From an uncultured Gammaproteobacteria bacterium (GTDB lineage Bacteria > Cyanobacteriota > Vampirovibrionia > Gastranaerophilales > CAJFVJ01): a stretch of 64,000 bases of DNA. Every line of letters begins with the position of its first letter. The stretch's first letter is position 1. The stretch lies in assembly GCA_964444415.1 (NCBI GenBank), contig CAYUHE010000001.1, positions 71,150 to 135,149 on the forward strand, given 5' to 3'. Below the pieces are notes generated by a model that searched no databases, was not told where the DNA came from, and worked only from the letters and a program-made list of their open reading frames with translations. Made by a program: the position numbers and the translations under genes. Shown in pieces: positions 1,276 to 58,464 of this stretch.

Positions 1276-2268
1276 TTACTGCTCCATATCTTTGAAAGGA
1301 GTCGTATCATTATAGCTCGCCATATTTATAAAGGTATATAAAACTTGCGAACTGAAATTCTTTGAACCGACCTCTAAAATTATTTTAAGAGCATCTTTTG
1401 TATTTTTAACCCCTGTTCTAAGTCTACCTGTAATCAAATTATCATAATAGTTACAGATATTTATTATCTGACTGTACAAGCTTATTTGATTATCGGAAAT
1501 GCCATAAGGATAGCCTGAGCCGTCATGGTTTTCGTGGTGTTCTAAAACAGCACGGCATACATTTTCAGGAAAACCGAAATCATTTTTCAAAAATTTATAG
1601 CCTATCTGCGGGTGAAGCTGTAAAACTTTTTGCTCTTTAGGAGTCAAACTTTGTTTTATTAAAATGTTTTTATCAATTTTGGTTTTGCCGACATCATGCA
1701 GCAATGCAGCTAAAGCTACATCGTTAATGGCAAGCTCTTTCAATTTCATTTTAGAAGCTAAAATTATTGCCAAAATGGTAACATTAACTGAATGTGTCTG
1801 GTAATAACCGCCCATAAGCTGAACCTGCGAACGATATACCACATTTTCAACCGTAGGCAAGATAACTTCTATAATCCTGTCTCTGGCCTCTGTAAAGACT
1901 TCTTGGTTATTTACTTCATGCAAAATATATGAACCAAGAGCTTGCAAATACGTTTTTTTGATTCCAAGCTGTTCTTGAACTTCGATTATGGATGCGCTGT
2001 TGATTTTGAAATCTTCTTTAAAAAACTCATTCCAATAATCTTTTTCGGTAATTTTTTTCTCATCGCCTTGAAGATCTTTGTCTATAGTTTTTAATGCTTC
2101 ATCCTGCTCATTTTCGTCAATATATATTGCAGAAAAATATCTTAATTGAAGCAATTTTCCAGGGGTTAGAATTTTCCCGGACTCGAAAATTCGCTCACCA
2201 TTTTCATTGTAAATATTATATGGTAAAGCCTGATGTTCTATAAGGTCTTCTGTTCTAATTTGTTTCAA
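1276..2268 (-). CDS. HD-GYP domain protein (cyclic dinucleotide phosphodiesterase family)
   Basis: HDVGK, HHENHDGSGYPYG motifs. Confidence 0.9.
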   Translation of the reverse strand: MKQIRTEDLIEHQALPYNIYNENGERIFESGKILTPGKLLQLRYFSAIYIDENEQDEALKTIDKDLQGDEKKITEKDYWNEFFKEDFKINSASIIEVQEQLGIKKTYLQALGSYILHEVNNQEVFTEARDRIIEVILPTVENVVYRSQVQLMGGYYQTHSVNVTILAIILASKMKLKELAINDVALAALLHDVGKTKIDKNILIKQSLTPKEQKVLQLHPQIGYKFLKNDFGFPENVCRAVLEHHENHDGSGYPYGISDNQISLYSQIINICNYYDNLITGRLRTGVKNTKDALKIILEVGSKNFSSQVLYTFINMASYNDTTPFKDMEQ

Positions 2269-2380
2269 TTTGATAACCTCTATGGTCGACTCAATCCATT
2301 CTTACAACTGTAAAAAAGTATAAAAATCTAATTCTAATTATATCCTTTTTCAATTTTATTGAAAAATTTTTTCAGTCAAA

Positions 2381-2698
2381 TCAATTATTTAGTCGACTTT
2401 GTTCTATGCGAACATAATCGCATAAATTTTCGAGCTTTTTATCTTCCATCAATTTCAAAAAATCGGAAATATCAGCGATTTTATTCATTGCAAAGGCAAC
2501 TTCTGAAAGCAAAGCACAGTCATTGCAAAAAATAATATCCATGGAATACATTATAGAACCGGCTGTGGGCTTGTCTAAACCGCAGCAAGAGCAGGCAAAA
2601 AGCTCCGTTTCGGAATTTGGATTATCTTCAATATCATCCAATCTCATCTGCTCCATAACTTGTTGCATATCTTCGATAACTTTCATTTCTTCAGACAT
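2381..2698 (-). CDS. Small acidic hypothetical protein with putative Zn-binding Cys motifs
   Basis: Likely start MSEEMK at 2698; CSCCG...FCNDC. Confidence 0.65.
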   Translation of the reverse strand: MSEEMKVIEDMQQVMEQMRLDDIEDNPNSETELFACSCCGLDKPTAGSIMYSMDIIFCNDCALLSEVAFAMNKIADISDFLKLMEDKKLENLCDYVRIEQSRLNN

Positions 2699-2773
2699 AG
2701 ACTTATTCCTTAATAATATATAGTTGCGAAAAATTTTTAGTGCTAAAATTATCCTTATTAAATATAATACCAT

Positions 2774-3802
2774 ATGGATTTTTTTATGAAAGCTGCTGTA
2801 TTAAAAGAAAAAAATATTTTTGAAATTGAAGATATTAAAAAACCCGAACTTGAAGGTAAAGGTGCTTTAATAAGGGTTTTGGGCTGCGGTCTTTGCGGCT
2901 CTGATATTGTCAAAATAAAAACAGCTATGGCAAAAGAAGGTTCAATTTTAGGACATGAAATAGTTGGTATTATTGAACAAATACAAAGCGAAACTGATTT
3001 TGAAGTGGGCGACAAAGTTGTATTAGGACATCATGTTCCCTGTTTCAATTGTGAATTTTGCAAAGGCGGAAGTTTTTCAATGTGTAAAACTTTTAAAAAA
3101 ACTAATATAAAACCGGGCGGTTTCTGCGAATACCTAAAAGTCTCTGAAGCCCATCTCAAAAATACCGTATGCAAAGTGCCTGAAAATATGTCAGACATAG
3201 TGGCATCATTTACAGAACCTCTGGCTTGCTGCATAAGGGCAATAAAAAGAGCTTCCATTCAAAAAAATGACACCGTCTTAATCATCGGCCTTGGCTCAAT
3301 AGGACTTTTAATGGGTCAAGCAGCTCAAGTTTACGGAGCAAAAGTCATCGGCTGTGATATTTTACAAGACAGGCTTTCTATGGCAAAAAAACTCGGCTTC
3401 AATGAAACAATTTTATTTCAAAGCAATGAAACGACTTCTGACCTTTTAAAAAAGAAAATGCATGCTCTATCAGGTGTTGACAAAGTAATTTTAACAGCAG
3501 GAAATGATAATTCTATTGCTTTTGCACTCAAATCAATTCGTGATGGCGGCGATATAGTGATTTTTGCAAGTGTAAAATCAAATGACAAAGGCTTTTCCAA
3601 CAATGAGATTTATTATAGGGAATTAAGCATCAAAGCCAGCTATTCTCCGACACCTGCTGATATAAAAGAATCCTTTTCTCTACTAAAAGATGGTAAAATA
3701 AATGTAGAACACATAACTGAAGTTTATGATTTTAAAGACCTAAACCAAGCTGTGAGTGACTTTGTAAGTAACAAAATTCTGAAAGCGTATATCAAAATAT
3801 GA
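2774..3802 (+). CDS. Zn-dependent medium-chain (sorbitol/iditol-type) dehydrogenase
   Basis: CGLCGSD, GHE, CxxCxxC-x7-C structural Zn site, GLGSIG Rossmann motif. Confidence 0.9.
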   Translation: MDFFMKAAVLKEKNIFEIEDIKKPELEGKGALIRVLGCGLCGSDIVKIKTAMAKEGSILGHEIVGIIEQIQSETDFEVGDKVVLGHHVPCFNCEFCKGGSFSMCKTFKKTNIKPGGFCEYLKVSEAHLKNTVCKVPENMSDIVASFTEPLACCIRAIKRASIQKNDTVLIIGLGSIGLLMGQAAQVYGAKVIGCDILQDRLSMAKKLGFNETILFQSNETTSDLLKKKMHALSGVDKVILTAGNDNSIAFALKSIRDGGDIVIFASVKSNDKGFSNNEIYYRELSIKASYSPTPADIKESFSLLKDGKINVEHITEVYDFKDLNQAVSDFVSNKILKAYIKI

Positions 3803-5070: not shown

Positions 5071-5790
5071 ATGATAACAAAAATTCGACATCCAAAACTA
5101 AATATGGATCGAACCTTACGATACTCTGAGAGTGCGACAAACAAAGAGTGTGTGCTGCAGAAGAACGAAGAAAAAACTCAAACAATGAATAAATCCGCCA
5201 ACGTAACTTTCACGGGCGGATTTTTTAGTCCTAAAAAACAAGACAGTGTGAATTTTTCAGGAGCGCCTACACCTCCTAAAAAAGATTTTTGGACAAAATT
5301 AGGCGAAAATCCTAAAATTCAAAATTTCATAAAAAGCAAACGATTTGATAACCTCTTAAAAAAAGCAAATGATTTTGCCTGGATGGAAAGCATATTAATG
5401 TTTGCAATAGCAACCACTATCAAACCTGTTTCGATTATGGCATTACCTGTTGCAAAAGAAGAAGACAAAAAATATGCCGCAACAAAAGCATTTTTGGGAG
5501 GAGTTGTCGACTTTTCAATTTCCACCGCCGTCATCTTGCCTATAACCATGGTTATTAACAAATTCAATGAAAAAATCAAAAAAGACCCGACCATTTTGAC
5601 GGACAAAGTATCCTACCTAAAAGACAAAAAGAATTTCAACAATTTCAAAAAAGTTATTGAATACTCACCAAAAATTCTTTTAATCCCTGTAAGATCGGCT
5701 CTTACAATTGCCTTAATCCCTCCAACTTTGAAATATCTCTTCCCTGAAGAAGCTAAAAAGTTGAAATCAAAAAAAGGAGGCGGCAAATAA
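5071..5790 (+). CDS. Hypothetical membrane protein, module A, with F-x-G leader
   Basis: Leader motifs VTFTG and VNFSG; hydrophobic segments; homologous to the N-half of 15382..16773. Confidence 0.8.
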   Translation: MITKIRHPKLNMDRTLRYSESATNKECVLQKNEEKTQTMNKSANVTFTGGFFSPKKQDSVNFSGAPTPPKKDFWTKLGENPKIQNFIKSKRFDNLLKKANDFAWMESILMFAIATTIKPVSIMALPVAKEEDKKYAATKAFLGGVVDFSISTAVILPITMVINKFNEKIKKDPTILTDKVSYLKDKKNFNNFKKVIEYSPKILLIPVRSALTIALIPPTLKYLFPEEAKKLKSKKGGGK

Positions 5791-6476
5791 TGATAAATTC
5801 TATTAACGCCTACACTTCTCAAAATAAATATTTGCCAATCAAGCAAGAAACTTCAAAAAATTCTTCAAATACTAATTTTGGGAAAAATAAAATGCTTGAT
5901 GATTTTTGCTCAAAAATTGCAAATAAAAAACAAACTCAAAATATTATTTTCAAAATAGCAAACAGCGACATTATGAAATCAATTGTAAATTGGGGGGCAA
6001 AAGAAAAAACCACAATTAACAGAAAAGGTGAAATAATCTCCTCGAACAATTCCGATAAAATTAGTCAATATCTTATGGTTGGATATTCTGCTATTTTACA
6101 GACCAATCATATTATTAATATTTTAAGAAACAAAAAAATGCCTGAAGACAGAAAAGAAACATTAGCCATTAACAATGTACTTACTTTTATCCTTCCGACT
6201 CTGGGTGCTTTCACGATAGACAAATCTATAAACAAAGGTATAGACAGATTCCAGCGCTATGCAGAAACAGTCAAAAATAAAAAATTCAACGATTCTCAAG
6301 CAAAAGGCTTAAAAACTTTAAAGACGGTCTTTATCTTCGCAATGATGTATAAATACTTCGCAAACCTTGTAGCTACGCCTCTTGCAGAAGTAACTACAAA
6401 AGGGATGAAACACGCAGGACTCATAGGGAATAAATCTCAGCCAAAAGTCGAAGTTAAGAAAGAATCTTCAAAATAA
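5790..6476 (+). CDS. Hypothetical membrane protein, module B, with F-G leader
   Basis: TAATG coupling to module A; MINSIN...TNFGK leader; homologous to the C-half of 15382..16773. Confidence 0.8.
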   Translation: MINSINAYTSQNKYLPIKQETSKNSSNTNFGKNKMLDDFCSKIANKKQTQNIIFKIANSDIMKSIVNWGAKEKTTINRKGEIISSNNSDKISQYLMVGYSAILQTNHIINILRNKKMPEDRKETLAINNVLTFILPTLGAFTIDKSINKGIDRFQRYAETVKNKKFNDSQAKGLKTLKTVFIFAMMYKYFANLVATPLAEVTTKGMKHAGLIGNKSQPKVEVKKESSK

Positions 6477-7431
6477 CTTCCGCTCTTGATAACAAAGTGT
6501 GATTTTGTTCGATTTTTTCGATAGAATTACCCTTAAACTTGGCTCTTTCAGAAGGGTTTTTAATATATTTATTCAAAAGATTTATCAATTCATCAGTATT
6601 TTTGTACAAAATCAAATCCTTGCCGTCTTCAAAATATTTGGCAGTGTCTTCAACATAATCGCTAATCAAAAAAGACCCCGTAGCAAGAGCTTCAAGCACC
6701 CTTGAATTCATACTCGAAAAACCCTGCTCAAGTGTAATATTCAAAATCACATCTGCACGATGATAAGCTGCAGCAAGATGTTTTTCATCCGGCAGAAACC
6801 CTTTATAGCATTTTTTGTATTCTTCAACTTCTTCTTCATTCAAATAACCTTTTTCAAGCATATTTTTCACACTTTGCTCAAAATGCAGCCCAAAACAATA
6901 TATTGAAAGCATCCCTGGAAAATTCTTCACCACTTGGGCAATGATACTCTCTCTCCTATCTGTCAAAGGGCGCCCTGCAAAAAGAATTTTGGAAGAAGTC
7001 AATTCAATTTCAGGATAATCTTGTTTATAAAGTTCAAAATCAATACCTGTAGACAAATAATGGGCAGGGACCTTAAAATCACAAAGATATTTTTCATCCC
7101 AAGAAAAAACAATCGTTTTTGGCTGATTATTTAATTTATCCAAAAAATCTTCTTTGCCGCCATGGGCAAAAATACTTTTGGGGTCGTCTATAAAATAATG
7201 CACACAAGGTATTTTGAGCGAATTTACAAATTCTTTCACATCTTCTTGCATAAAATGCATATAATCCATCCCAAAAATAAAATCGGGCTCAAAATCTCTT
7301 ACTTTTTCAAAATCAATTTTTCGAATATCATATAAAAGCATCTCAGCTCCAAGCACCTCAAAGCCTTTAGCAATGCCTTTGATAATCATTTCGCCGACTA
7401 TGCTGGCAGGTGAAATAACAAGAATTTTCAT
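6454..7431 (-). CDS. CgeB-like glycosyltransferase (Glyco_trans_1_2 type)
   Basis: LFAGR...R, ILNI...MNSRVLEALATGSFLISD C-terminal GT-B signature. Confidence 0.8.
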   Translation of the reverse strand: MKILVISPASIVGEMIIKGIAKGFEVLGAEMLLYDIRKIDFEKVRDFEPDFIFGMDYMHFMQEDVKEFVNSLKIPCVHYFIDDPKSIFAHGGKEDFLDKLNNQPKTIVFSWDEKYLCDFKVPAHYLSTGIDFELYKQDYPEIELTSSKILFAGRPLTDRRESIIAQVVKNFPGMLSIYCFGLHFEQSVKNMLEKGYLNEEEVEEYKKCYKGFLPDEKHLAAAYHRADVILNITLEQGFSSMNSRVLEALATGSFLISDYVEDTAKYFEDGKDLILYKNTDELINLLNKYIKNPSERAKFKGNSIEKIEQNHTLLSRAEVILKILS

Positions 7432-7438
7432 ATTATGC

Positions 7439-8776
7439 CTATTTATCGTTTAATTTCAAAAGCAAATTATTATGCTTTGCCACAACTTCTCCCGATGAAA
7501 AAACATAATCAGGAAATTCTTTGTCAAAAAGATTTTTGTAAGTCTCATCTTCTTTAAGCATAAAAACCAAGAAATCAGCGTCTTTGCCTTTTTCAATACT
7601 TCCTATTCTATCATCAAGACGCAAAATCCTAGCAGCATTTATTGTCATCATATCCAAAAATTTCAAATCATCTATTCCTTTTTTGATATTTCTGACATAT
7701 TTGGCTTCATTTAATATGCTCAAATCCTTATTGCTGACCAGGCTGTCTGTGCCAAAAGCAACTTTTCCAGGAAAATATTTCATCAAATTAAAAATATTAG
7801 CCGTTTTTTTGTGATGAAATTGGTTACTGCGTGGACAATGAACAACGCTGGCACCCAATTTTGCAAGAGTTTCAAGCTCTTCATCATAAAGCTGATTGAC
7901 ATGAACCGCAATAAAATTATCCCTCATAGCATCAAATTCCTGCAAATAAGCAACAGGCGTAAGACCTTTTTTGTCAGGCTTCATATTTTGAAAATCTATA
8001 AATTTGTGAAGCAAATTAATATCAGAAGTCCCGTTTCTTAGCCAATCAAGCTCATCTTGACATTCTCCCAAATTAGTTTGCAGCAAGGCATGGTGCTTTC
8101 TGGAAAATTTTGCGATAACTTTCCAAAGTCGTTTATGCACATTATACAAAGAATGAGGTGCCATACCCAAAAAAGTATTCTCTTTTTTTCTCAATAAAAA
8201 CTTATGGACCTGTTTTTTAAGTCTTCTAAATTCTCTTTTGCTTGAATTTTTGGAATCGGCGAAAAGCTCAATAAATATATAAGTTTTCAAAGGAATATCA
8301 TTTAAAATATCAAAAAAATCTTTTTCGGATGAGACTTGTGCAATCGTTGTAGTCCCAGACAAAATAGACATTTCAAGGCCTTTTTTAAATGAATTTATTT
8401 TGTCTTTTTTATTCCAGCAAGAATATTCTTTAAAAACATTCATCATCCAATTCATAAATCTTTCAGGCGGAATATATCCGACCACAAAAAGTTTTTTCAA
8501 AGTCAAAATAAATCTTTTGATGAGCGCATTTTTATTTTTTGGTTTATAAGTCCCAACATCAGTATATTGCAGATGTGTATGCATATTTATAAAACCGGGG
8601 GTCAAAATCGCATTGCCATAATCATAAAACTCATATTCTGCATCGCCAAAATATTCTTGAATTTTATCATCATCAATAATATCGAGTATTTTACCCTCTT
8701 TAACGACCAGAGCCTTATTTTCAAGAACTCCCTCATTCGCAGGCAAAATCCACTTAGCTTTATAAACTTCCGACAT
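7439..8776 (-). CDS. Metal-dependent amidohydrolase (MTA/SAH or aminodeoxyfutalosine deaminase-like)
   Basis: PGFINMHTHL, SGTTT, APHSLY, HCPRSN, GTDS, GSIEKGKDAD. Confidence 0.85.
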   Translation of the reverse strand: MSEVYKAKWILPANEGVLENKALVVKEGKILDIIDDDKIQEYFGDAEYEFYDYGNAILTPGFINMHTHLQYTDVGTYKPKNKNALIKRFILTLKKLFVVGYIPPERFMNWMMNVFKEYSCWNKKDKINSFKKGLEMSILSGTTTIAQVSSEKDFFDILNDIPLKTYIFIELFADSKNSSKREFRRLKKQVHKFLLRKKENTFLGMAPHSLYNVHKRLWKVIAKFSRKHHALLQTNLGECQDELDWLRNGTSDINLLHKFIDFQNMKPDKKGLTPVAYLQEFDAMRDNFIAVHVNQLYDEELETLAKLGASVVHCPRSNQFHHKKTANIFNLMKYFPGKVAFGTDSLVSNKDLSILNEAKYVRNIKKGIDDLKFLDMMTINAARILRLDDRIGSIEKGKDADFLVFMLKEDETYKNLFDKEFPDYVFSSGEVVAKHNNLLLKLNDK

Positions 8777-8872
8777 TTTTTTATAACCTTTTTAAAAATT
8801 TTAATAAGACAAAGTCTATTGTACAACACTTTATTATAGATGTTAATAATTTAATACTTTATCTTAACTTGC

Positions 8873-9604
8873 CTACATCCAGTCTAGATATATATTTTTA
8901 ATATTGTTTTTTTCAATAAGATTCTTTATATGGGCCATTCTTTGTTCTCCATTTTGGAAAAATCTTTCATGAGTCTCACAGAAAATATAATCAATATGAT
9001 TATATAAACCTTTTAAAATAATTTTTTCTAAAATTTCAAATTCCGCTCCTTCTACATCAAGCTTTAAAATATATATTCTTTTGGGCAAAATCTCTTTTTC
9101 AATAAATTCGGTGAGGTCTATGACTTCTACATTTTCTTGTAAAATATCTTGTTTATACACTTCAGTATTATCAATTAATGTTATAGATGAGCCGCTAATA
9201 TCCTCTATACCGTCAAAACACAATGAACTTAAAGTTAAAGTTGTATTTTTATCCCATACTGCTTTATCAAAGATTTCTATTTGAGGGGTGGTTTTGAATA
9301 AATCTTTTTGATGATTTGCCAATCTTGAATTTGCCTCAAAAGCATAAACTTTGGCTCCAAAAAGATAAAATAACTCTGTCACATACCCAGCAAGAGAACC
9401 GCAATCTATACAAATAGACCCTTTTGGCATGTCTGATAAAATTTCTAAACATTTTTGAGTTATACTTTGTTGTTTTTTAACAATAAAATTTATTCTCGGC
9501 TCTTTAGCAGCACAGAAAATATCTGGATTTTTATAAAAATTTTCACATCGTTTAGGGTCAATTTCACAAATGTCTTTAGAACATTTTTCTGTATTTCTTG
9601 GCAT
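8873..9604 (-). CDS. FkbM-family methyltransferase
   Basis: IDCGS.AG, VYAFEAN, ILKLDVEGAEFEIL, ETHE. Confidence 0.85.
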   Translation of the reverse strand: MPRNTEKCSKDICEIDPKRCENFYKNPDIFCAAKEPRINFIVKKQQSITQKCLEILSDMPKGSICIDCGSLAGYVTELFYLFGAKVYAFEANSRLANHQKDLFKTTPQIEIFDKAVWDKNTTLTLSSLCFDGIEDISGSSITLIDNTEVYKQDILQENVEVIDLTEFIEKEILPKRIYILKLDVEGAEFEILEKIILKGLYNHIDYIFCETHERFFQNGEQRMAHIKNLIEKNNIKNIYLDWM

Positions 9605-9781
9605 AAATTTCTTCCTTATTATAAATACTCTTTTATAATATCACATCAATTAAACTAAAAAACACTAATCCATTTCGTTTAAATTCCAAGCAATTCCTTG
9701 ACTTGATACTCTACATATAGTGTAATAATGGGGAACGTTTACTAAATTAGAGTGTAATTTTCCATTTGAGTCGGCAAAAAA

Positions 9782-12700
9782 ATGTACATTAAAGAGATTG
9801 AAATAGATAATTTTAAATCTTTTGCCAACAAGGTCACAATACCATTCTTAGACGGCTTTACGACCATATCAGGACCAAACGGTTCAGGCAAAAGTAACAT
9901 AATAGACAGCGTGCTGTTTGCACTTGGGCTGTCTTCTTCGCGTACTTTACGTGCAGAAAAATTATTCCACCTAATAAGCACTCATAACAACAAAAATGAA
10001 GCTGCGGTCAAAATAACTTTCGCGCCACTAGGCGAGGATGAACCTATTGTCGTTTCTCGCAAAATCAAAAAAGCCGGTGCAGGAAACTTTATCAGCTCTT
10101 ATAATTTGAATGGGAAATCATCAACTTTATCAGAAATTCACGACTTTTTGGGAAAATACAACATCTCGCCAAATAGTTATAACGTAATTATGCAAGGTGA
10201 TGTAACAGGAATTACCAACACCAGCTCGAATGAACGCCGAAAAATCATTGACGAAATCGCAGGAGTGGCTGACTTTGACCGCAAAATCGATCAAGCAACA
10301 CGTGAGCTGGAGATGGTCGAAACTCGTGTCGAAAAATCAACTATCATTTTGACAGAAATCGAAGCTCGACTCGAACAGCTTGAACAAGAACGAAAAGAAG
10401 CCCTCAAATACAAAAAACTTAAGGACGAAAAAGTCGAACTCGAAAGCAAAATTTCGACCGTAAAATATTTTGATCTCAAAAACTCAATGGAACGCCTGCA
10501 TGAGAGCATTCTAGATGCCGACAATCAAAGAAAATCAGAACTTGAATCACTCAAAAAACTCTCCAAAGACCTTGCCAAAACTCAAATAGAGCTTGCCGAT
10601 ATCTCTGAACAGGTCAAAACCAAAGGCGAAGCCGAACAAATCGAAATCAAAAAACATGCCGAATCTCTCAAAGGGGAAATTGCACGCAAAAAAGACTCTA
10701 TAGCCTTTAATGACAAACAAATTGAGGATAATAAACTTGTAATAATCAGCTCAAATGAAAACATCGAAAATTTGAAGCAAAAAATCGATGATACGCTTAT
10801 CAAGATTGACGGGAAAAAAGATGACATCAAAATAATCGAAGCGAATATTGAAAGCGAAAAAGCCCAGCTTGAGCAAGTTTTATCACAAGTTACAAACATC
10901 AATCAAAGTACAAACGAGCATGTCGAAAAACGCAACGAGCTCAGACGTACTTTGGAAAAATCCCATGATGATGAAAACAATTTGATTAAAGAAAAACTCC
11001 CGCTTGAAGAAAAGCTTTCATCTCTGAGAAAAGAAATCGCCGAATCAAAACAAATAGTTGAACAGCTTGTAGAATCAAAAAAAATGTTTGATTCAAATGA
11101 AGATATTTTAAAGACTCAAATTGAAGAAACACAAAAGGAACTGATAGACTTTGAATCGGCTCAAAAGAAAATTATGATTGAGCTTGATACTGTCAAAAAT
11201 GAAATTACCGACTCTAGCTATAACGTAAATCTTGCATACCGCAAAATCAGCAATCTTGAAGCCCAAAAACAGGCTTTTGAAGATGCTAATTTCGGTCGAG
11301 CTATCGAAACCGTCATGAATTCAGGATTGGGCGGAATCCACGCTCCGCTGGCAAAACTCGGCAAAGTCGACAAAAAATACTCTCTTGCCCTAGAAGTCGC
11401 AATGGGTTCTCGCATGAGGTATATAGTTGTGGACTCGGATGAAGTTGCTTCTGTCGCAATCGAAATCCTGAAATCAGCAAATGCAGGTCGTGCATCGTTT
11501 TTGCCTTTGAATAAAATCCAAAAAGCCCCGGGGAATTTGAAACTCCCAAAAGAACAAGGCGTCATTGATTATGCGATTGATTTGATTGATTATGATGAAG
11601 TTTATGATAATGCATTTTATCATGCCCTTGGAGAAACCCTTGTTGTAGAAGACATGCAGGTTGCCAGAAGACTCTTCGGGCGCTACCGCATGGTCACACT
11701 TGACGGGTCAATTGTCGAAAAATCAGGTCTCATGAGCGGTGGTTCAAATGCCAAAAGCAACCTCAAATTCAGCCAAAATGAAGACGAGGAACTAGAAACT
11801 TACAAAACTCGCTTAAAAGAATTTGAAACCAAGCATCAAGAACTTGAAGCAAAAAAACTTGAGCTTGAAACCAAGCACGAAAAAATCCGCCAACATTACT
11901 CTGGAGCGCTAAATGAGCTTAACAAGAAAAAAATTGAATATGATAATGTAGTTAAAAACCAAGCTGATGCTGACAAAAATATCGAAGCAAAAATTGAATT
12001 TCTTAAAGAATCTGAGCCAAAAGTTGAAGAACTCGGCAAAAATCTTGATGCCATTGAAGCAAAACATATTCAAATCAACGAACTTTCAGCTTCCTTGAAG
12101 GAACAAATTGAAGCCATTGAAACCCAAATGCCTCAAGACGAACTCTCCAAGCTAAATGAACTCACCGAAGGCATCGAGTTTGAAGTCAAACGTCTTGAAT
12201 CCCAAATCGCCAACTGCAACAACGATATCAAAGGCTTTAACATGGAGATTGATTTCAACAAAGAATCAATCAAAAATCAAGAAGAACGCATCTTAAAAAT
12301 CAATGTCGATAATGTCAAACTTGTTGAAGATAAAGAAAAATTCGCCATTGAAATAACAGAAATTCAAACCCAAATTGAAGAACTTGATATCAAAATCAAA
12401 GAAATCGGCGAAAAACTCGGCGAACTTCAAACAAAACGTGACGAACTTCAAAAATCCGTCATTGACATGGAGAAAAACAAAACTGTTTTTGAGGCCAAAA
12501 TTGAAAGAACTCAAGAACAAATAGAGGCTTACAAATCTCGCAGAAAAGAGCTTGAGCCTGAACTCGAAACCATAAGAGAAGAACTCAAAGAAGCAGGCTA
12601 TGACTTATCAAACTTGAAACCACTTGAGATTTCGATCGAAGAAGTTATGAAGAAAATTGCCAGTCTTGACCGCCGTATGGAAGATCTTGGAGCTGTCAAT

Positions 12701-13279
12701 ATGCGTGCAATTCAGGACTATGATGAAGTTGAATCCCGCAAAAATGACCTCCACGAACGCCTCAAAACCCTTGATAATGAACGCAAACAAATCAATGACA
12801 GGATGCTTGGCTATGAAGATTTGAAGAAAAAAGCATTCCTTGAAACATTCCATAACGTAAATGAAAACTTTAAGGATATTTTTGCACAGCTTTCTGACGG
12901 AGAAGGGCAGTTAATTCTTGAAAATGCTGAAAATCCACTCGCAGCAGGGCTTACAATTGAAGCTCGCCCTCGTGATAAAAAAATGCAGCGTCTTGAATCA
13001 ATGTCAGGTGGCGAAAAATCGCTTACAGCTCTGGCATTTGTTTTTGCCATTCAAAGATATATGCCTGCACCATTTTATGCCTTTGATGAGGTAGATATGC
13101 ACCTTGACGGCATAAATGTCGAAAAATTATCTGAAATGATTAAAAAGCAATCGGCACAAACTCAATTTATCGTGGTTTCATTGCGCAAACCTATGATTGA
13201 ATCCGCAAATCGCACAATAGGCGTGACCCAAAAAGAAAAAGGTATTACAAAAGTTACAGGAGTCAGATTAAGTGATTGA
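9782..13279 (+). CDS. smc: Chromosome segregation protein SMC
   Basis: FKSF, Walker A GPNGSGKSN, coiled coils, hinge (GRASFLPL, VTLDG...G...GG), MSGGEKSL signature, FDEVD. Confidence 0.97.
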   Translation: MYIKEIEIDNFKSFANKVTIPFLDGFTTISGPNGSGKSNIIDSVLFALGLSSSRTLRAEKLFHLISTHNNKNEAAVKITFAPLGEDEPIVVSRKIKKAGAGNFISSYNLNGKSSTLSEIHDFLGKYNISPNSYNVIMQGDVTGITNTSSNERRKIIDEIAGVADFDRKIDQATRELEMVETRVEKSTIILTEIEARLEQLEQERKEALKYKKLKDEKVELESKISTVKYFDLKNSMERLHESILDADNQRKSELESLKKLSKDLAKTQIELADISEQVKTKGEAEQIEIKKHAESLKGEIARKKDSIAFNDKQIEDNKLVIISSNENIENLKQKIDDTLIKIDGKKDDIKIIEANIESEKAQLEQVLSQVTNINQSTNEHVEKRNELRRTLEKSHDDENNLIKEKLPLEEKLSSLRKEIAESKQIVEQLVESKKMFDSNEDILKTQIEETQKELIDFESAQKKIMIELDTVKNEITDSSYNVNLAYRKISNLEAQKQAFEDANFGRAIETVMNSGLGGIHAPLAKLGKVDKKYSLALEVAMGSRMRYIVVDSDEVASVAIEILKSANAGRASFLPLNKIQKAPGNLKLPKEQGVIDYAIDLIDYDEVYDNAFYHALGETLVVEDMQVARRLFGRYRMVTLDGSIVEKSGLMSGGSNAKSNLKFSQNEDEELETYKTRLKEFETKHQELEAKKLELETKHEKIRQHYSGALNELNKKKIEYDNVVKNQADADKNIEAKIEFLKESEPKVEELGKNLDAIEAKHIQINELSASLKEQIEAIETQMPQDELSKLNELTEGIEFEVKRLESQIANCNNDIKGFNMEIDFNKESIKNQEERILKINVDNVKLVEDKEKFAIEITEIQTQIEELDIKIKEIGEKLGELQTKRDELQKSVIDMEKNKTVFEAKIERTQEQIEAYKSRRKELEPELETIREELKEAGYDLSNLKPLEISIEEVMKKIASLDRRMEDLGAVNMRAIQDYDEVESRKNDLHERLKTLDNERKQINDRMLGYEDLKKKAFLETFHNVNENFKDIFAQLSDGEGQLILENAENPLAAGLTIEARPRDKKMQRLESMSGGEKSLTALAFVFAIQRYMPAPFYAFDEVDMHLDGINVEKLSEMIKKQSAQTQFIVVSLRKPMIESANRTIGVTQKEKGITKVTGVRLSD

Positions 13280-14075
13280 TAATGTTTTTGAAACAGCTAT
13301 GAATCTGCAAAAATCCAATTCCAAGGACGGCATTGAGATTTTGGTCAATATGGCAAAAAAACAGGAACTTGACCCATGGAACGTCAATATTGTTGATGTT
13401 ACAGACAAATACCTTCAACATTTGGTCGAGCTAAAGCAAAATAATCTTCGCCTAACTGGGCGGACTCTTTTGTTTGCAGCCATTTTGCTTCGCCTCAAAT
13501 CTGATATCCTTGAAGGCATTGACCCTCTTATGCTCGAAGAAGAAATGGTGCAAGGCTTTGAAGAAGATTATGATGACCCTGATTTTGTTGATTATGAACA
13601 ATTGGCCAATCGTGCAAATGTAATCTCTATAGACGAAGCACTTGAGCGTCGTACTAGCGTAAAACTCAATCGTAAACGTGTTGTAACCCTGAAAGATTTG
13701 ATAAAACAATTAGAATTTTATGAAGAACTTGAAAGAAAACGTTCTTTAAAAAATGCTCACGAACGTGCAAAACGCCGAATTCAATCTTATGCGAATTTGA
13801 GTCCGCAAGATATCATAAATCTTGCCCATGACGAATACATCGAAGATAGCATAAAAACCTTGTACACTCTACTTGAGCGTCTTTTTGAATCTAATGAAAA
13901 AATTGAGCTCTCGGAGCTTCAAACTGTCGGAATGGATAAAATTTCGGCTTATATTGCCTTACTCTTTCTCTCCGCAGACGGCAGAGTGGATTTGGTGCAA
14001 GATGAATTTTATTCTGATTTGTATGTAATTGCAGATAACCTGAAAGGAAAAGATGAGCCTAAAGTCCAAAGTTGA
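13272..14075 (+). CDS. scpA: Segregation/condensation protein A (kleisin)
   Basis: LDPWNVNIVDVTDKYL, AAILLRLKS, LVQDEFYSDL; overlaps smc. Confidence 0.9.
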   Translation: MIDNVFETAMNLQKSNSKDGIEILVNMAKKQELDPWNVNIVDVTDKYLQHLVELKQNNLRLTGRTLLFAAILLRLKSDILEGIDPLMLEEEMVQGFEEDYDDPDFVDYEQLANRANVISIDEALERRTSVKLNRKRVVTLKDLIKQLEFYEELERKRSLKNAHERAKRRIQSYANLSPQDIINLAHDEYIEDSIKTLYTLLERLFESNEKIELSELQTVGMDKISAYIALLFLSADGRVDLVQDEFYSDLYVIADNLKGKDEPKVQS

Positions 14076-14628
14076 GGCGGTTTTATTTATTACAGCGAGA
14101 GCTGCAACGCCTGAAGAAATTTCTGCCATTTTAAATGCGCCTGTCGAAGATATCGAAGAGGCTTTATTGGACTTGATTATGGACTATGCATCCAGAGAAG
14201 GTGCTCTCGAAATCGATGATGAAAACGGCTACATAATCCAAATCAGGCAAGAATATATGGATATCGTAGAAAAACTTGTACCGGTTGAGCTTACGCCTGC
14301 AATTCTCAAAACTCTTTCGATTATTGCAATCAAAGAACCTATTTTGCAATCAGATTTAATCGACCTGCGCGGCTCAAGTGCGTATGACCATATCAAAGAA
14401 CTATTAATCAAAGGACTCGTAACCAGACGACGTGATTCAAATACACGTTCTTTCAAAATCAAAACTACAGATAAATTTTCAGAATACTTCAAACTCAAAG
14501 GGGATGAGGCCACAGTGGCACAATTTATGGCAGAGAAAAATAAAATAAACCACATAGGTGAAATCGTTGATCAAAAGGAGCTTGAAATAGATGATGATTT
14601 ACTAAATGTCGACATAATCGACGACTAG
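14053..14628 (+). CDS. scpB: Segregation/condensation protein B
   Basis: VEAVLF, LKTLSIIAIKEPI, LRGS, TTDKFSEYF. Confidence 0.92.
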   Translation: MSLKSKVEAVLFITARAATPEEISAILNAPVEDIEEALLDLIMDYASREGALEIDDENGYIIQIRQEYMDIVEKLVPVELTPAILKTLSIIAIKEPILQSDLIDLRGSSAYDHIKELLIKGLVTRRRDSNTRSFKIKTTDKFSEYFKLKGDEATVAQFMAEKNKINHIGEIVDQKELEIDDDLLNVDIIDD

Positions 14629-14642
14629 GAAAGGAAAAGACT

Positions 14643-14918
14643 ATGGATAAAAATGCAAAAATGTCAGCTTTCAACCAGACCAGATATGGTGAGGCTCAAG
14701 CTATGCTTAACCAAAAAAAATCGGCTGGAACTATAACCAAAACATCAAAATTCACCATGCCGGATGGAAAAGTCTTGGTTAGAAACCCAAAATCAAACAG
14801 AATAGACTTCAAAACTCTTTTTTCGGGCTTGCATGATAACAACAATACCAATACAATCAGTAATTTCAAGCTAATTTCTGATAATATGATGGCATCCTAT
14901 AAAAAAATAAATAAATAA
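14643..14918 (+). CDS. Hypothetical protein
   Basis: ORF with AGGA SD directly after scpB; no recognisable motif. Confidence 0.55.
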   Translation: MDKNAKMSAFNQTRYGEAQAMLNQKKSAGTITKTSKFTMPDGKVLVRNPKSNRIDFKTLFSGLHDNNNTNTISNFKLISDNMMASYKKINK

Positions 14919-14920
14919 GC

Positions 14921-15304
14921 TTAACCGAACAAACACTCCCAAAGAGATTGTTCTAAAAGAGCTTTGTATTTGAATTTTCCGTATTGAGGAAATAAAACAT
15001 CCTCAAAATAATCTTCTATCTTCTCTACATCGTAAGCACAAATAAGTACTATGTCAGGATTTTGCTCTTTTACGTTACTTGGAGCAAAAGCTTTAAACCC
15101 TTTATGCTCTAAAGTTTTAGAATCAAAATTCTTGTCCGCTATACCTATGATATTAAGTCCGCTTAAATCAAAATTTTCTATGATTTCATCAAAATACATA
15201 CCTGCAGCATATAAAATGACTTTTTTATTCTTGTATTTTTTTGCTAATTTATCTATTTTTTTTTGAAGTTTAAGTTCTTGCAATTCTTCTAATATACCGC
15301 TCAT
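14921..15304 (-). CDS. Hypothetical protein, small Rossmann-like domain
   Basis: KVILYAAG...IIGIAD...PDIVLI; GGGAG SD; resembles the N-terminal domain of 24449..25579. Confidence 0.7.
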   Translation of the reverse strand: MSGILEELQELKLQKKIDKLAKKYKNKKVILYAAGMYFDEIIENFDLSGLNIIGIADKNFDSKTLEHKGFKAFAPSNVKEQNPDIVLICAYDVEKIEDYFEDVLFPQYGKFKYKALLEQSLWECLFG

Positions 15305-15381
15305 AAAGACTCCCTCAATATATAATTACAAATCTAATTATATTTTTTTGAAAAACTCAAGTCAAGATTGTATATATCATT

Positions 15382-16773
15382 CTATTTTTTAACAACTTCA
15401 GGTCTTTTTAAAGGAGTTACTTTTGTCGGTTCTTTCATAAAATTCTTTTTGTAAAAATCTGCCAGAGGTGTCGCTACAACAGGCACTATATATCTGTATA
15501 TAAAGGCAAAAGCAATCATTGTAGGGGCTACTGAGCCTATATTGCCAGCACGGAATTTATATTTTTCAAGATAATTTGCTCGCAGTTCTCTTGTTCTTTC
15601 TAAAGGGGTTAATATTTTATTTTGTTTTTTCTCTATAGCTTTAAAGAATCCTTGTTTTTCTTCTTCTTGCATTATTTTTTCGATATTTTCTTCAAAATGA
15701 CTCCTCTTATATTTTTGATAATTTTCGCCCATCTCTTTGAATTTATCTTTTATTGCTTCACCCAAAGCAGCTGAAACTATAGCGGAAACCCCCCAAACTA
15801 TAAATTGATTTGCAGCAAGAGTTTTTTTGCGGTCTTGTTCTATTTTCGGGCTGCTTATTGTCGAACCTGCATATACCAAAGTTCCCAAAAACGCTGTCCC
15901 TGAAGTAAACAGATTCTTTACAGCTGAATCTGTTTTCTTATCATTAGCCATTTTTTCAGATAAATTCTTTACTTTTTTATTCCCAGCAGCTCTCTCAATA
16001 AAAGACTCTATTTTCTTTATAAATTTTTGACCCAAATTCAATTTTTCGGGAACTTGCCCTTTAAATTGAGGCTGAGAAGAATTATTTTCAAAAGCTTTAA
16101 AAGAAGCGGTTAAAGGCTCTTTCGGTTTTGAGGATGTAGAAATATTAGATGATTCATTTGTCTTTTGGATTGGTGGCTTTTGCTGCGTTTTATTTTTGCC
16201 GTCTTTATCTTTCTTAAAGAAAAGCCCCATTACAGTTGGAATCAATGCAATAGTGCCGGCAGCAATAAGCGGCTGCAAAACAAATTTTGGTCCCCAGCTC
16301 ACTATAAAATTAAATGCATCTTTATTTTTAGCATTATGCTTAATAAAGCTATTTTTTAAATATTCAGGGTCTTTATCAACTCTTTGAGCAACCTTTTTCA
16401 GGGCCGTACTTACAGGGTTAAACAGCACTATAGCCGTCACATACCCCCAAATCCCAGAAGCCATGCCATGAGCAGATGCGTATTGTTTATCTCTTTTCTC
16501 ACCACCAGGAAGACTCAAAATGGTCAAAGGTCTTAGAACACAAGCCAAGCCAAGAACTGCCGTAGCCTCTAAAAGAACAGGTTTAGCTGTCATTTTTGCA
16601 AATTTTTCAAAACCTTTACTTAGATAAAATTTCTTTTTAGCAGCTTCGCTCATCTTAAAAGGACTGCCTTTGAAATTCACATCCGAAGGTTTATTAGCAA
16701 AATTTCTTGAAAATACCGTTCTATCCCGGCTTTTCAGCCTGTCAGAATTTTGACTTAGTTGAATGACCATCAC
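15382..16773 (-). CDS. Hypothetical membrane protein, A-B fusion with F-K-G motif before each module
   Basis: N-half aligns to 5071..5790 and C-half to 5790..6476; VNFKG and PQFKG motifs. Confidence 0.85.
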   Translation of the reverse strand: MMVIQLSQNSDRLKSRDRTVFSRNFANKPSDVNFKGSPFKMSEAAKKKFYLSKGFEKFAKMTAKPVLLEATAVLGLACVLRPLTILSLPGGEKRDKQYASAHGMASGIWGYVTAIVLFNPVSTALKKVAQRVDKDPEYLKNSFIKHNAKNKDAFNFIVSWGPKFVLQPLIAAGTIALIPTVMGLFFKKDKDGKNKTQQKPPIQKTNESSNISTSSKPKEPLTASFKAFENNSSQPQFKGQVPEKLNLGQKFIKKIESFIERAAGNKKVKNLSEKMANDKKTDSAVKNLFTSGTAFLGTLVYAGSTISSPKIEQDRKKTLAANQFIVWGVSAIVSAALGEAIKDKFKEMGENYQKYKRSHFEENIEKIMQEEEKQGFFKAIEKKQNKILTPLERTRELRANYLEKYKFRAGNIGSVAPTMIAFAFIYRYIVPVVATPLADFYKKNFMKEPTKVTPLKRPEVVKK

Positions 16774-18939: not shown

Positions 18940-19788
18940 ATGAGCGTAGTAGTAAATACCAATCTGGCGTCTGCAATGGTGCAGAAAAACTTAGGTAAAG
19001 CAACACTTGACCTTGGTAACACAATGAGAAAGTTATCAACAGGTATGAGAATCAATTCAGCAGGCGATGATGCTGCAGGATTGTCACTATCTGAAAAACT
19101 GAAAAGTCACATTGATTCATCAGAAATCACTAAACTAAATGCACAAAGCGGTATTAATATGCTGCAAGTTGCAGAAAGTGATTTAAGCGTTATTCAAAAC
19201 AATTTACAAAGAATGAGAGACTTGTCTATACAAGCAGCTAACGGCGTCTATTCAACTTCAGAACGTAAAATGATTAACCAGGAATTCCAAGAGCGTATCA
19301 AAGAAATTGACAGAATTTCACAAAGCTCACAATTCTCTGACTTATTCTTATTGAACGGGTCTTTGGGACCATCAGGTTCACAATTAAAACTGCAAGTTGG
19401 AACTTATGCATCACCTGCAACAACAAATACAATCAACATCGGTGCTGCATTCGCAACAACAAACACTGTAGCACTCCATCTTAACACCTCTAATGTCACA
19501 ACTGTAACTTCTGCCCTTGCATCTATCGTATCATTAGATGCAGCTATAAGTACAGTTTCCAGCAGAAGATCATTAATCGGTGCCAATATTAACCGCTTGC
19601 AAAGTACTGTAGAAAGAATTGATGTAAGAAAAGAAAACCTTCAAGCATCATACTCAACAATTAGAGATACAGATATAGCCAAAGAAACAGCTAATCTCTC
19701 TAGACTACAAGTATTGCAACAATCAGGAGCAATGCTGTTGAAACAAGCTAACCAAACAACACAGTTAGCTCTGCAATTACTACAATAA
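18940..19788 (+). CDS. fliC: Flagellin (short type)
   Basis: VNTN...KLSTGMRINSAGDDAAGL N-terminus; IRDTDIAKE...QAN...LQLL C-terminus. Confidence 0.96.
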   Translation: MSVVVNTNLASAMVQKNLGKATLDLGNTMRKLSTGMRINSAGDDAAGLSLSEKLKSHIDSSEITKLNAQSGINMLQVAESDLSVIQNNLQRMRDLSIQAANGVYSTSERKMINQEFQERIKEIDRISQSSQFSDLFLLNGSLGPSGSQLKLQVGTYASPATTNTINIGAAFATTNTVALHLNTSNVTTVTSALASIVSLDAAISTVSSRRSLIGANINRLQSTVERIDVRKENLQASYSTIRDTDIAKETANLSRLQVLQQSGAMLLKQANQTTQLALQLLQ

Positions 19789-23935: not shown

Positions 23936-24424
23936 ATGGATGAAAAAGATTTAGAAAAAAGTACATTAGCTGACGGCTTAGGCTTGAAACTTGTTGAAGC
24001 GTTGCAAAACCAAACAAACGCCGATGGCGATTATATCGAGGAACCAGTAAAAATTTATGAGGAAAAAACTGAATTGAAATCAGAATTGCCTCAAATCAAT
24101 ATTTCCAGCGATAATTATGTCCTTTCAGAGAACGTAACCAAGCTTATTCATCTTGTAAATAGCCTGCCTGCAGATGTTTCCAAGCAAACAGGTGCTGTTA
24201 TTATCAAGCAAACTATGGAAGCTATGGGAACGTCAATGAGAGATTTGATGATTGAAGCCAAACAAGTGCAAGAAAACATCAACGGCAATATTCGCAGTTG
24301 CATGAGCGATATTGAAGAAGCCAAAGCAAGCATTAAAAGCCACGAAGCTCAAATAAAATCTTACAAAAATCTTTCGACTGAGTTGAATGATTTGGTCGGA
24401 CTGTTTATTATAACTGAGAAATAG
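23936..24424 (+). CDS. Hypothetical protein with C-terminal coiled coil
   Basis: ORF with AAGGA SD; helical C-terminus. Confidence 0.65.
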   Translation: MDEKDLEKSTLADGLGLKLVEALQNQTNADGDYIEEPVKIYEEKTELKSELPQINISSDNYVLSENVTKLIHLVNSLPADVSKQTGAVIIKQTMEAMGTSMRDLMIEAKQVQENINGNIRSCMSDIEEAKASIKSHEAQIKSYKNLSTELNDLVGLFIITEK

Positions 24425-24448: not shown

Positions 24449-25579
24449 ATGCAAAATTTACAAAATGAAAAAGACTATAAAATCTTACAAGAAAATATAT
24501 TTGAAAAACACAAAACCGTTTTAAACCTTTTTAATCAAAACAATCCAGATATCTATATCTACGGTTGCGGAAAATATGGCGATTTAATTTTAAATATATG
24601 CAAAGAAAATAATATTAAGCCAAAAGGTTTTATAGACACCTATTCAAACGCTGAAGAAATTCAGGGATTAAAAGTTTTCAAATTCAGTGAAATTGAAAAT
24701 AAAAAATCTTTAATAATAGTTGCTTCTCTTTTTTATGCTTGTGATATTTGCCAACTTCTAAAAGTAAACGGCTTCAATAATTTACTTTCTTTCTTAATCT
24801 TATTTATCCATTATAATAAATATCTTGATGAACCTACCACCTTTGAAAACACCTTATATGATTATATTTTAGATATTGTTTCAAATTATGATAAATACAT
24901 CGAAACATTAAATTTGCTAGAGGATGAAACATCAAAACAAACCTTTAAATACCTTATGAATTTAAGAAAAAACCTTGATTATGCAAACCTCTTTAATTTA
25001 TTTCGACCAATAAGAGATATATATTTCGAAAAAGAAATATTGCACCTGACAGAAAATGAAGTTTTTTTAGATGGTGGCGGTTTTATTGGTGATACTTCTT
25101 TGCAATTTATTTCAAGGACTAATGGCAAATACAAAAAAATATTTCTTTTTGAACCCTGCAAAGAAAATATAAATGCCGCTATTTTGAACTTAAAACCATA
25201 TAAAAATATTGAATTTATTCAAAAAGGAATCAGCAACAAAAATGCTTCTGTAAATTTTGAAACAAATTTGAATAAAGCAGGATGTTATGTCTCAGAAAAA
25301 GGGAATGACTCAATAGACTTGGTAAAAATCGATTCTGTGATAGATGAGCCTGTAACTTTTATAAAATTTGATATCGAAAGTGAAGAAAAAAACGGACTTT
25401 TAGGCGCAGCTGATTTGATTAAAAAATACACCCCAAAATTAGCTATATCCGGGTATCACAAGCCCAGAGATCTTTGGGAGCTTCCACAAATTATAAAACA
25501 AATTAATCCTGATTATAAAATTTATTTTAGAATGCACGAATACTCTATAGAATCTGTATTCTATGCCATACAGCCATAA
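24449..25579 (+). CDS. FkbM-family methyltransferase with N-terminal Rossmann-like domain
   Basis: IYIYGCGKYG; FLDGGGFIGDT, FEP, FIKFDIES.E, PKLAISGYH. Confidence 0.88.
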   Translation: MQNLQNEKDYKILQENIFEKHKTVLNLFNQNNPDIYIYGCGKYGDLILNICKENNIKPKGFIDTYSNAEEIQGLKVFKFSEIENKKSLIIVASLFYACDICQLLKVNGFNNLLSFLILFIHYNKYLDEPTTFENTLYDYILDIVSNYDKYIETLNLLEDETSKQTFKYLMNLRKNLDYANLFNLFRPIRDIYFEKEILHLTENEVFLDGGGFIGDTSLQFISRTNGKYKKIFLFEPCKENINAAILNLKPYKNIEFIQKGISNKNASVNFETNLNKAGCYVSEKGNDSIDLVKIDSVIDEPVTFIKFDIESEEKNGLLGAADLIKKYTPKLAISGYHKPRDLWELPQIIKQINPDYKIYFRMHEYSIESVFYAIQP

Positions 25580-27964: not shown

Positions 27965-28333
27965 ATGCGCAAGACAGTTTTAATTGCAGATGATGAAGTT
28001 GATATTGTTGAAACACTTCAATTTATGTTGCAAGCCGAAGGATTTGACTGCAAAGTAGCTTATGACGGCGAAGAGGCTCTTGCTCTGGCAAAAAGCGTCA
28101 ATCCTGATTTGATGATTCTGGATGTTATGATGCCTAAAATCAACGGCTACAAAGTTTGCCGCTTGCTCAAATTTGATGCAAAATATCGGGATATTCCGAT
28201 TCTGATGGTGACCGCTCGCTCGCAAGATGAAGATAAAATCATCGGCGAAGAAACAGGAGCAAACGAATATATCACTAAACCTTTTGATATTGAAGCAGTA
28301 GTTAACAAAGTCAAAAAATATTTGGGTGAATGA
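27965..28333 (+). CDS. Single-domain response regulator
   Basis: IADDE, LDVMMP, VTA, ITKPF. Confidence 0.93.
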   Translation: MRKTVLIADDEVDIVETLQFMLQAEGFDCKVAYDGEEALALAKSVNPDLMILDVMMPKINGYKVCRLLKFDAKYRDIPILMVTARSQDEDKIIGEETGANEYITKPFDIEAVVNKVKKYLGE

Positions 28334-57815: not shown

Positions 57816-57873
57816 TTGAGTTTTCTCCCCTCTGTATAATTATTTTAAAATCTTAATTCACATTAACTGCTAA

Positions 57874-58434: not shown

Positions 58435-58464
58435 CTTACTATTTCTCCCCTTTTTATTTCTTAA

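Follow-up and report, generated by a model that had tools for sequence, protein, structure and literature searches.

For DUF606 and the paired SMR proteins, a path leading from gene duplication through a heterodimer to a fusion has been proposed (PMC3962082, excerpted text). A comparable arrangement is found in a stretch of 64,000 nucleotides of contig CAYUHE010000001.1 (hereafter the window; positions are counted from its first letter), in which two adjacent genes, A and B, recur 9 kb away as one fused A-B gene. The A and B modules resemble DUF606 and the paired SMR proteins, as far as these are described in that excerpt, in being small helical modules that occur in pairs of adjacent genes and also joined in two-domain fusions, in their odd number of hydrophobic segments and in a bias of Lys plus Arg (K+R bias) near zero. 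They differ from these families in having no Pfam match, no opposite charge bias and no proven homology between the two halves, and the single-gene homodimeric form has not been seen in the A/B family.

The inference of a protein partnership from a domain fusion, the Rosetta-stone argument, reportedly goes back to Marcotte and Enright in 1999. Here too, two separate proteins recur as one polypeptide with the same order of parts. The present case differs in that the split and fused copies are paralogues within one genome, 9 kb apart, and in that the transition between the two forms has taken place at least 11 times in one lineage-restricted family. Long basic leaders with an F-x-G motif, as carried by the A and B proteins, are to our knowledge not a feature of the DUF606 or paired SMR families. 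The reading favoured here, with a probability of about 0.6, is that A and B would be obligate equimolar partners forming one membrane-embedded unit, because their coupling by TAATG is universal, the order A-then-B is fixed and the split/fused transition has been repeated.

Split and Fused Copies of the Two Modules

Gene A (5071..5790, + strand) is an open reading frame (ORF) of 239 amino acids (aa) with a polar, basic leader, followed by module A with its three hydrophobic segments. The start at 5071 is kept in 15 relatives (13 split orthologues and two fused ones), which have N-termini of the type MIADIRHPKLN; one database version of A (P0188) starts at Met12. The core of module A, residues about 82-227 (5314..5751, + strand), was delimited by a hidden Markov model (HMM) match (E=2e-43) and by Kyte-Doolittle peaks. 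Gene B (5790..6476, + strand) is an ORF of 228 aa in which a leader beginning MINSIN precedes module B, with a core of residues about 62-205 (5973..6404, + strand; HMM matches with E=2e-24 and 3e-10). Orthologues of B were found at 41-97% identity. The junction of the two genes (5776..5792, + strand) consists of a GGAGG Shine-Dalgarno sequence (5776-5780) within the Gly-Gly codons of A, the C-terminus of which is KKGGGK, and, 9 nt downstream of it, a TAATG stop/start overlap (5788-5792); the coupling by TAATG had been pointed out in the earlier note on the window. B and a convergent glycosyltransferase-like gene (6454-7431, - strand) share 23 nt at their 3' ends (6454-6476), and a terminator-like site was not found between the two.

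The fused gene (15382..16773, - strand) is an ORF of 463 aa when read from GTG 16773 or 462 aa when read from ATG 16770. The ATG is the likelier start, in view of the database copy P0004, which is 462 aa long, and of the M-[VI]-I-Q with which the orthologues begin. Its A module (16204..16656, - strand; HMM match E=1e-60) and B module (15439..16020, - strand; E=1e-63) are joined by a linker (16021..16203, - strand) that is variable and basic and contains neither a hydrophobic segment nor a stop codon.

That A aligns with the N-half and B with the C-half of the fusion, in the same order, had been noticed from the letters of the window and was confirmed by both BLASTP and hhalign. With BLASTP, A and the N-half share 53 of 197 residues (27%, E=5e-21), and hhalign aligned A with the profile of 12 fused orthologues at a probability of 99.1% (E=4.5e-19). 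For B, the BLASTP match with the C-half comprises the last 47 residues only (40%, E=4e-5); with the fused-orthologue profile, hhalign placed B residues 108-205 on residues 302-444 of the fusion (97.9%, E=6.2e-13), covering both of the blocks quoted earlier. On these alignments, the window holds one split and one fused copy of the same two modules, A-then-B both times, and the split pair and the fusion are two old paralogous copies (27% identity in A). No additional copy of the family was detected within the 64 kb by tblastn with A, B or the fusion.

A word-indexed search returned 12 full-length fused relatives of 423-521 aa, with 38-100% identity and a coverage of at least 92%, one of them named as a hypothetical protein of Candidatus Gastranaerophilales. 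In their alignment both halves are conserved and no break is seen. An orthologue of the fusion (48%) at another locus, L001, lies in a neighbourhood that matches that of the window, with genes for flagellin, an unknown ORF, a PrmC-like methyltransferase, the fusion, ScpB, ScpA and SMC. The fused reading frame recurs in 94 family members. An assembly or sequencing artefact as the source of the fused ORF, a concern raised at the outset, is ruled out for practical purposes by the 12 fused relatives from separate records and by the syntenic locus; the linker has no stop codon, and the fused frame is found in 12 full-length orthologue clusters as well as in the 94 members.

Gene Order and Predicted Translational Coupling

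A genome scan based on the alignment of fused orthologues, with two peptide patterns and one genome per species, gave 34 loci, which are not a census. In 28 of them A is directly followed by B on the same strand, according to ORF and HMM annotation. Seven fused ORFs are present in the set (in L001, L003, L018, L022, L023 and L031 and as a second copy in L013), and a locus with a stand-alone A or B was not seen among the 34. A and B thus co-occur, being adjacent in 28/28 split loci, and the order is A-then-B in all 94 proteins that hold both modules.

TAATG is present at every one of the 28 split junctions and GGAGG in the preceding 15 nt at 27 of them (L028 has GGGGG). These bases form the last codons of A, which typically encode K-G-G-V-K. 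A C-terminus consisting of GG plus one to three residues is found in 51/102 A-only proteins, 0/38 B-only proteins and 1/94 fused proteins, and many of the remaining A tails end in K-E-G, K-G-V or similar sequences, which, to judge from the protein tails, can also encode purine-rich sites. The Gly-Gly tail of A is best explained as the footprint of the ribosome-binding site of B, rather than as a protein motif, because the GGAGG for B lies within the last codons of A; the constraint disappears upon fusion, as only one fused protein ends in this way. K-A, A-A or Q-K-A is a very frequent ending of B-type and fused proteins; the B protein and the fusion of the window end in K.

In the split pairs, the stop/start overlap is accompanied by a ribosome-binding site that lies within the upstream gene, and translational coupling is predicted from these features. 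Short overlaps including TAATG are enriched for heteromeric complexes: in E. coli the share of pairs is 30.4%, compared with 6.8%, and in Haloferax volcanii it is 45.2%, compared with 5.6% (PMC10666635, excerpted text). The most common surroundings of the pair consist of NadB-NadC upstream and of genes for a HEAT-repeat protein, QueC, a DUF366 protein and a SPOR protein after B, with six gene clusters conserved in 17-20 of the 34 loci. In other neighbourhoods the upstream genes encode an amidase and a racemase, or the fusion is located between ScpB and a PrmC-like methyltransferase.

Recurrent Transitions Between the Split and Fused Forms

The split pair of the window has fused orthologues (P0043 and P0055), which are 45-49% identical to A and the C-halves of which match B block for block. 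A tree of A domains was made with FastTree from 164 rows, left from 166 sequences that passed a completeness filter after two copies of the window proteins had been removed. Most split A proteins of the 34 loci failed this filter, as the orthologue-derived model matches them in two pieces. The label split or fused changes 24 times on this tree, and at least 11 of the changes are forced by branches with a support of 95% or more, although some of the rows labelled split may be truncated fused genes. With shuffled labels, a mean of 50 changes was obtained, and none of 500 shuffles gave as few as 24. The survey of split and fused forms proposed in the earlier note has in this way returned both forms, a single order and at least 11 transitions.

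One way in which a fusion can come about is visible in a DNA alignment of a single orthologue group. Compared with the split members L021, L027, L028 and L029, the fused members L018, L022, L023 and L031 are without about 50-70 nt, a stretch that holds the GGAGG, the TAATG and some 16-27 codons from the start of B (MNVTLNTFN and following), while the F-T-G motif is kept. This comparison shows that the fusion in this group arose by a deletion of about 50-70 nt.

Two family copies are present in the window and two in locus L013. The copies in the latter, less than 14 kb apart, are a split A+B pair and an A-B ORF of only 337 aa, in which the B module is incomplete (1541-3360, - strand, and 9959-10969, + strand). 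Database records of A and B orthologues agree in the size of their largest contig in 10 cases, and records of fusion, A and B orthologues also share such sizes (for example 853,377, 422,625, 403,875 and 47,992 bases). This suggests, from contig sizes rather than coordinates, that both paralogues coexist in other genomes.

A and B might also be merely co-expressed, acting separately or in sequence without binding, their fusion being neutral. The 55-70% of overlapping gene pairs in two species that encode no complex (PMC10666635, excerpted text) are in line with this view; adjacency at 28/28 split loci, the constant order in 94/94 fusions, the 11 or more transitions and the lack of any stand-alone A or B among the loci make it highly improbable.

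Predicted Membrane Embedding and Arrangement of the Modules

The cores of modules A and B measure about 150 and about 190 aa, respectively. In each module there are three hydrophobic segments with a high content of Gly, Ala, Ser, Thr and Pro; Lys-rich loops lie between the segments, and amphipathic helices (hydrophobic moment 0.5-0.7) flank them. Over windows of 19 residues, the Kyte-Doolittle peaks are 1.75, 1.93 and 1.75 in A and 1.01, 1.63 and 1.36 in B, and those of the fusion are 1.84, 1.33 and 1.93, followed by 1.18, 1.64 and 1.69. A, B and the fusion are on this basis predicted to be membrane-embedded. Conserved in A are an Arg-Pro in segment 1, a Pro-Gly, a charged K-x-D-K-x-Y-A-A loop and several Pro residues in segment 3; conserved in B are D/E-R-K-x-T-L-A-x-N, a WW pair and F-x-Y-R-Y followed at some distance by P. 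Net charges amount to +4.5 to +7.4 for the leaders, about +1 to +1.6 for loop 1, about +5 for loop 2, +2.5 to +3.8 for the tails and +9.9 for the linker of the fusion. One fused member of 696 aa (L003, 8364-10451) carries an insertion of about 200 aa without a Pfam domain between segments 2 and 3 of module A, from which it follows that this loop tolerates large inserts.

In the mechanism that we propose, A and B would be made in equal amounts and would assemble 1:1 in one membrane-embedded unit, in which A may stabilise the weakly hydrophobic, polar helices of B. The long basic leaders, the loops and the linker would be kept cytoplasmic. In the preferred layout, segments 1 and 2 would form a hairpin and the Pro-rich segment 3 would be re-entrant. 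Fusion would be tolerated because it hard-wires the 1:1 stoichiometry. The unit might, as a guess, serve as a small channel or a membrane scaffold; channel, scaffold and anchor roles are all possible, and the pore, translocon or carrier of the earlier note is neither supported nor contradicted by the data.

An arrangement closer to that proposed for DUF606 and the paired SMR proteins would be an antiparallel (inverted) heterodimer, in which A and B are diverged duplicates of three helices each that lie in opposite orientations, with the arrangement fixed by the direct fusion of two odd-numbered modules. The three hydrophobic segments per module and the lack of one in the linker agree with it, and a K+R bias near zero in both modules is also described for dual-topology proteins (PMC3962082, excerpted text). 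In the same excerpt, however, paired homologues are expected to have opposite charge biases, and here both are about 0. The linker (79-127 aa, net +10) would also have to be placed outside the cell without a signal peptide, as would the 48-93-aa loop of B or the 62-106-aa leader of split B (net +4.5).

Such an origin by duplication bears on the suggestion, made in the earlier note, that A and B are distant paralogs. BLASTP of A against B gave no match. The hhalign comparison of the N-half with the C-half of the fused orthologues gave a probability of 6% (E=0.0017), and that of A-only with B-only profiles 2.5% (E=0.018). In both alignments helix 1, the charged loop and helix 2 are in register, and this weak similarity fits both the suggestion and the antiparallel arrangement; at 2.5-6%, the homology is not significant, which counts against the antiparallel arrangement, and the paralogy is not established by these values. 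A B model built from fused orthologues only matched the A region of six proteins in a set of 170 sequences, with independent E values (i-E) of 7.7e-6 to 1e-3. Matches of an iterated B model to A regions at about 1e-7 were discounted as a likely result of contamination of the model. Taken with the charge and linker data, the antiparallel heterodimer is considered unlikely.

The modules might instead be monotopic or peripheral, with Pro-containing segments dipping as hairpins into one leaflet or into a hydrophobic inclusion and all loops cytoplasmic, so that A and B would cover a surface or give it its shape without spanning the membrane. Such a layout would suit any number of tandem modules, the positive net charge of all loops and tails and the amphipathic flanking helices, as well as the conserved Pro or Arg-Pro residues inside the hydrophobic segments (R118/P119, P126, P157, P206 and P217/218). 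Its probability is nevertheless rated as low: segments 1 and 2 are joined by a short loop of strong charge and high conservation, like that of a helical hairpin crossing the bilayer, the hydropathy peaks of 1.75-1.93 lie in the transmembrane range, and genes for inclusion bodies were not seen nearby.

Several observations weigh against the view that A and B form one obligate membrane-embedded unit. The hydrophobic segments of B are weak, with peaks of 1.0-1.6, and hydropathy is the one line of evidence for membrane insertion. Every hydrophilic region is net positive, and under a three-helix model the K+R bias of the flanking residues is 0.0 for A (positive in 19/51) and -0.1 for B (positive in 10/33), so the topology is not readable from charge. 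With three hydrophobic segments in each module, both termini could lie inside only if one of the segments were re-entrant. Taken by themselves, adjacency and coupling are predictive of a complex in only about 30-45% of pairs (PMC10666635, excerpted text), and the neighbourhoods examined are made up of housekeeping genes that differ between paralogue groups and give no clue to function. Of the obligate 1:1 membrane complex envisaged in the earlier note, the partnership is well supported by comparative evidence (adjacency, order, coupling and transitions); the membrane part is deduced from hydropathy.

The Leader Motif

Each half of the fusion is preceded by a short motif, as had been observed at the outset. 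VNFKG (16666..16680, - strand) lies before the A module, with F34 and G36 invariant in 12/12 fused orthologues, and PQFKG (16057-16071) lies in the linker, with F237 and G239 invariant among the fused orthologues. The leader of A holds VTFTG (5203-5217; residues 45-49) and VNFSG (5248-5262; residues 60-64), together at 5203..5262 on the + strand; T48, G50, F51, F52, S53 and F62 are invariant across the 16 sequences of the A orthologue alignment. In the leader of B a weaker form, TNFGK (5871-5885), is found, with F30 invariant among B orthologues. In the family, the pattern [VILTAPSNQ]xF[KSTNGHQRC]G occurs in 149/227 A leaders (about 15 expected from shuffling) and 106/131 B leaders (about 9.5 expected), most commonly as [VI]-[SN]-F-[SKT]-G. 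The varying middle residue indicates that the motif is not a hidden ribosome-binding site.

Precursors with a double-glycine leader have a short leader ending in GG, GA or GS and a peptidase-domain ABC exporter encoded nearby. The leaders of A and B are 30-100 aa long, and no such exporter was found among the neighbours examined. It has been considered that a dedicated protease cuts the leader at F-x-G and that the fusion is a polyprotein which gives mature A and B. The motif is a conserved island with an invariant Gly, its majority fraction in the 12 fused orthologues being 0.69 in the leader and 0.66 in the linker, against 0.31 and 0.26 for the variable sequence around it; it survives the deletion that creates a fusion and is sometimes followed by Gly or Ser, which may point to a likeness to double-glycine leaders. 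The residue after the Gly is not conserved, however (S in 30, G in 25 and K in 25 of 144 A leaders), and a gene for a protease or peptidase-transporter is not a conserved neighbour. The extreme N-termini of the leaders are conserved as well (MNVTLNT in B, MK[IV]..I in many A proteins), which suggests that the leader has a function of its own, and nothing would be gained from fusing the genes repeatedly if their product were then cut. The polyprotein idea of the earlier note found no support, because the motif is likewise present ahead of the N-terminal A module and of stand-alone B, neither of which calls for the cutting of a polyprotein; processing is regarded as quite improbable. We favour the view that the motif acts as a docking or assembly strand rather than a cleavage site.

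N-termini like those of the family are also seen on unrelated proteins of the window. A starch-synthase-like glycosyltransferase of 908 aa (42818-45541, + strand) has the leader MKVSSIDTQARLNFATNN...VITFGGTK, a single-helix protein of 114 aa (45652-45993, + strand) has MKVSGINNPARLSFASKN...CNFCGND, and an orphan of 844 aa (52171-54702, + strand) has ...QINFSGKKGYKF. The first two have 12 of their first 20 residues in common (E=2e-5). A GNAT-like protein at another locus (L016, 1357-1989, - strand) is leader-like as well, and it was the single, weak match of the leader HMM outside the family (E=0.008). The motif was not enriched in the first 120 aa of non-family ORFs (3/577 versus 2.5 expected). 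It is a doubtful idea, given little weight here, that the leader, with M-x-[IV]-x-x-I at its start, 30-60 polar residues and phi-x-F-x-G, serves as a portable tag for targeting or assembly that is specific to the lineage. If this were true, the A/B family would act as membrane anchor or receptor in a sorting or assembly system specific to Melainabacteria, and not as a simple transporter.

Size and Distribution of the Family

A profile of the fused orthologues was compared with 1.84 billion representatives, of which 892, counted as cluster representatives at 50% identity, matched with E of 1e-3 or below, 550 with E of 1e-10 or below and 46 with E of 1e-30 or below. With the module HMMs, 170 proteins were divided into 83 A-B proteins, eight A-B proteins that had an additional fragment of B or a B hit overlapping another, 70 A-only and eight B-only proteins, counts that are not frequencies, since the profile covers both halves and A is better conserved, which favours fused and A-type proteins. 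One apparent B-A protein proved to be an A-only protein with overlapping hits.

By record title, 19 of the 34 loci belong to Gastranaerophilales, seven to Melainabacteria and one to Candidatus Scatousia, and one comes from a metagenome-assembled genome labelled Clostridium. Among the lineage-labelled loci of this set, the family was seen only in Melainabacteria, mostly Gastranaerophilales, with the Clostridium label as the one exception. The locus in question (L007, CAUDIU010000064.1, 'uncultured Clostridium sp.') shares synteny and close similarity with the Gastranaerophilales loci L004 and L006, and its label is probably a binning or naming error.

The proposal that the family is uncharacterised holds for all the collections searched: A, B and the fusion have no match in Pfam, NCBIfam, PHROGs, PADLOC or PDB profiles. 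The best E values of the three proteins with Pfam-A and NCBIfam were 0.017-0.61, all far under the curated cut-offs. Among their relatives, the top Pfam family appeared in at most 6/51 A-type and 5/33 B-type proteins, always with E of 0.018 or above, and none of 34 long family members had a Pfam domain with E of 1e-3 or below. In the PDB profile search, profiles A1 and A4 gave no hits with E of 10 or below, no match reached 1e-3, and YebS, the sole match of profile A5 (E=2.3), was treated as noise. PHROGs gave two matches, with A only (E 0.07-0.095), PADLOC gave none, and in the phage and plasmid collections the fusion had no tblastn match. The ESM Atlas returned unnamed Melainabacteria clusters, apart from two weak named leads. 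GAD (12%, score 0.91) was not borne out by the Pfam scans. MTP18/MTFP1 (PF10558), carried by 11% of one Melainabacteria cluster, had a score of 0.80, under the reliability level of the Atlas, and is absent both from the Pfam hits of A, B and the fusion and from the 25 families listed for each of the 51 and 33 relatives; like the A/B family, it is a small basic protein with several hydrophobic helices. Searches of the published literature found no paper on the A/B family. The lineage-restricted family is new, and coupled two-part membrane proteins are a familiar kind.

Other Genes of the Window

Genes for motility are scattered in the window and comprise those for flagellin (18940-19788), a weak FlgK-like ORF (23936-24424), FlgE, FlgD, FliK and FliJ (56337-60711) and a PilB/MshE-type ATPase next to a response regulator (28330-29703). 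Two genes encode FkbM-type methyltransferases (8873-9604, - strand, and 24449-25579, + strand), one of which lies a short way downstream of the A/B pair and adjoins a glycosyltransferase gene and an amidohydrolase gene. The remainder is ordinary chromosomal housekeeping, and tRNA and Rfam scans of the 64 kb yielded no tRNA genes and no Rfam hits.

Conclusions

The A/B family is large, without annotation or detectable relatives, and was seen only in a poorly known gut lineage of non-photosynthetic relatives of cyanobacteria. Its members show how a ribosome-binding site constrains the C-terminus of a protein, here to Gly-Gly, and how this constraint is released by fusion. The natural series of split and fused forms can be used to study the joining of membrane protein modules. 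From the comparative data comes the testable prediction that A and B would bind 1:1, and the immediate value of the family is that it offers a well-defined target for structural and biochemical work.

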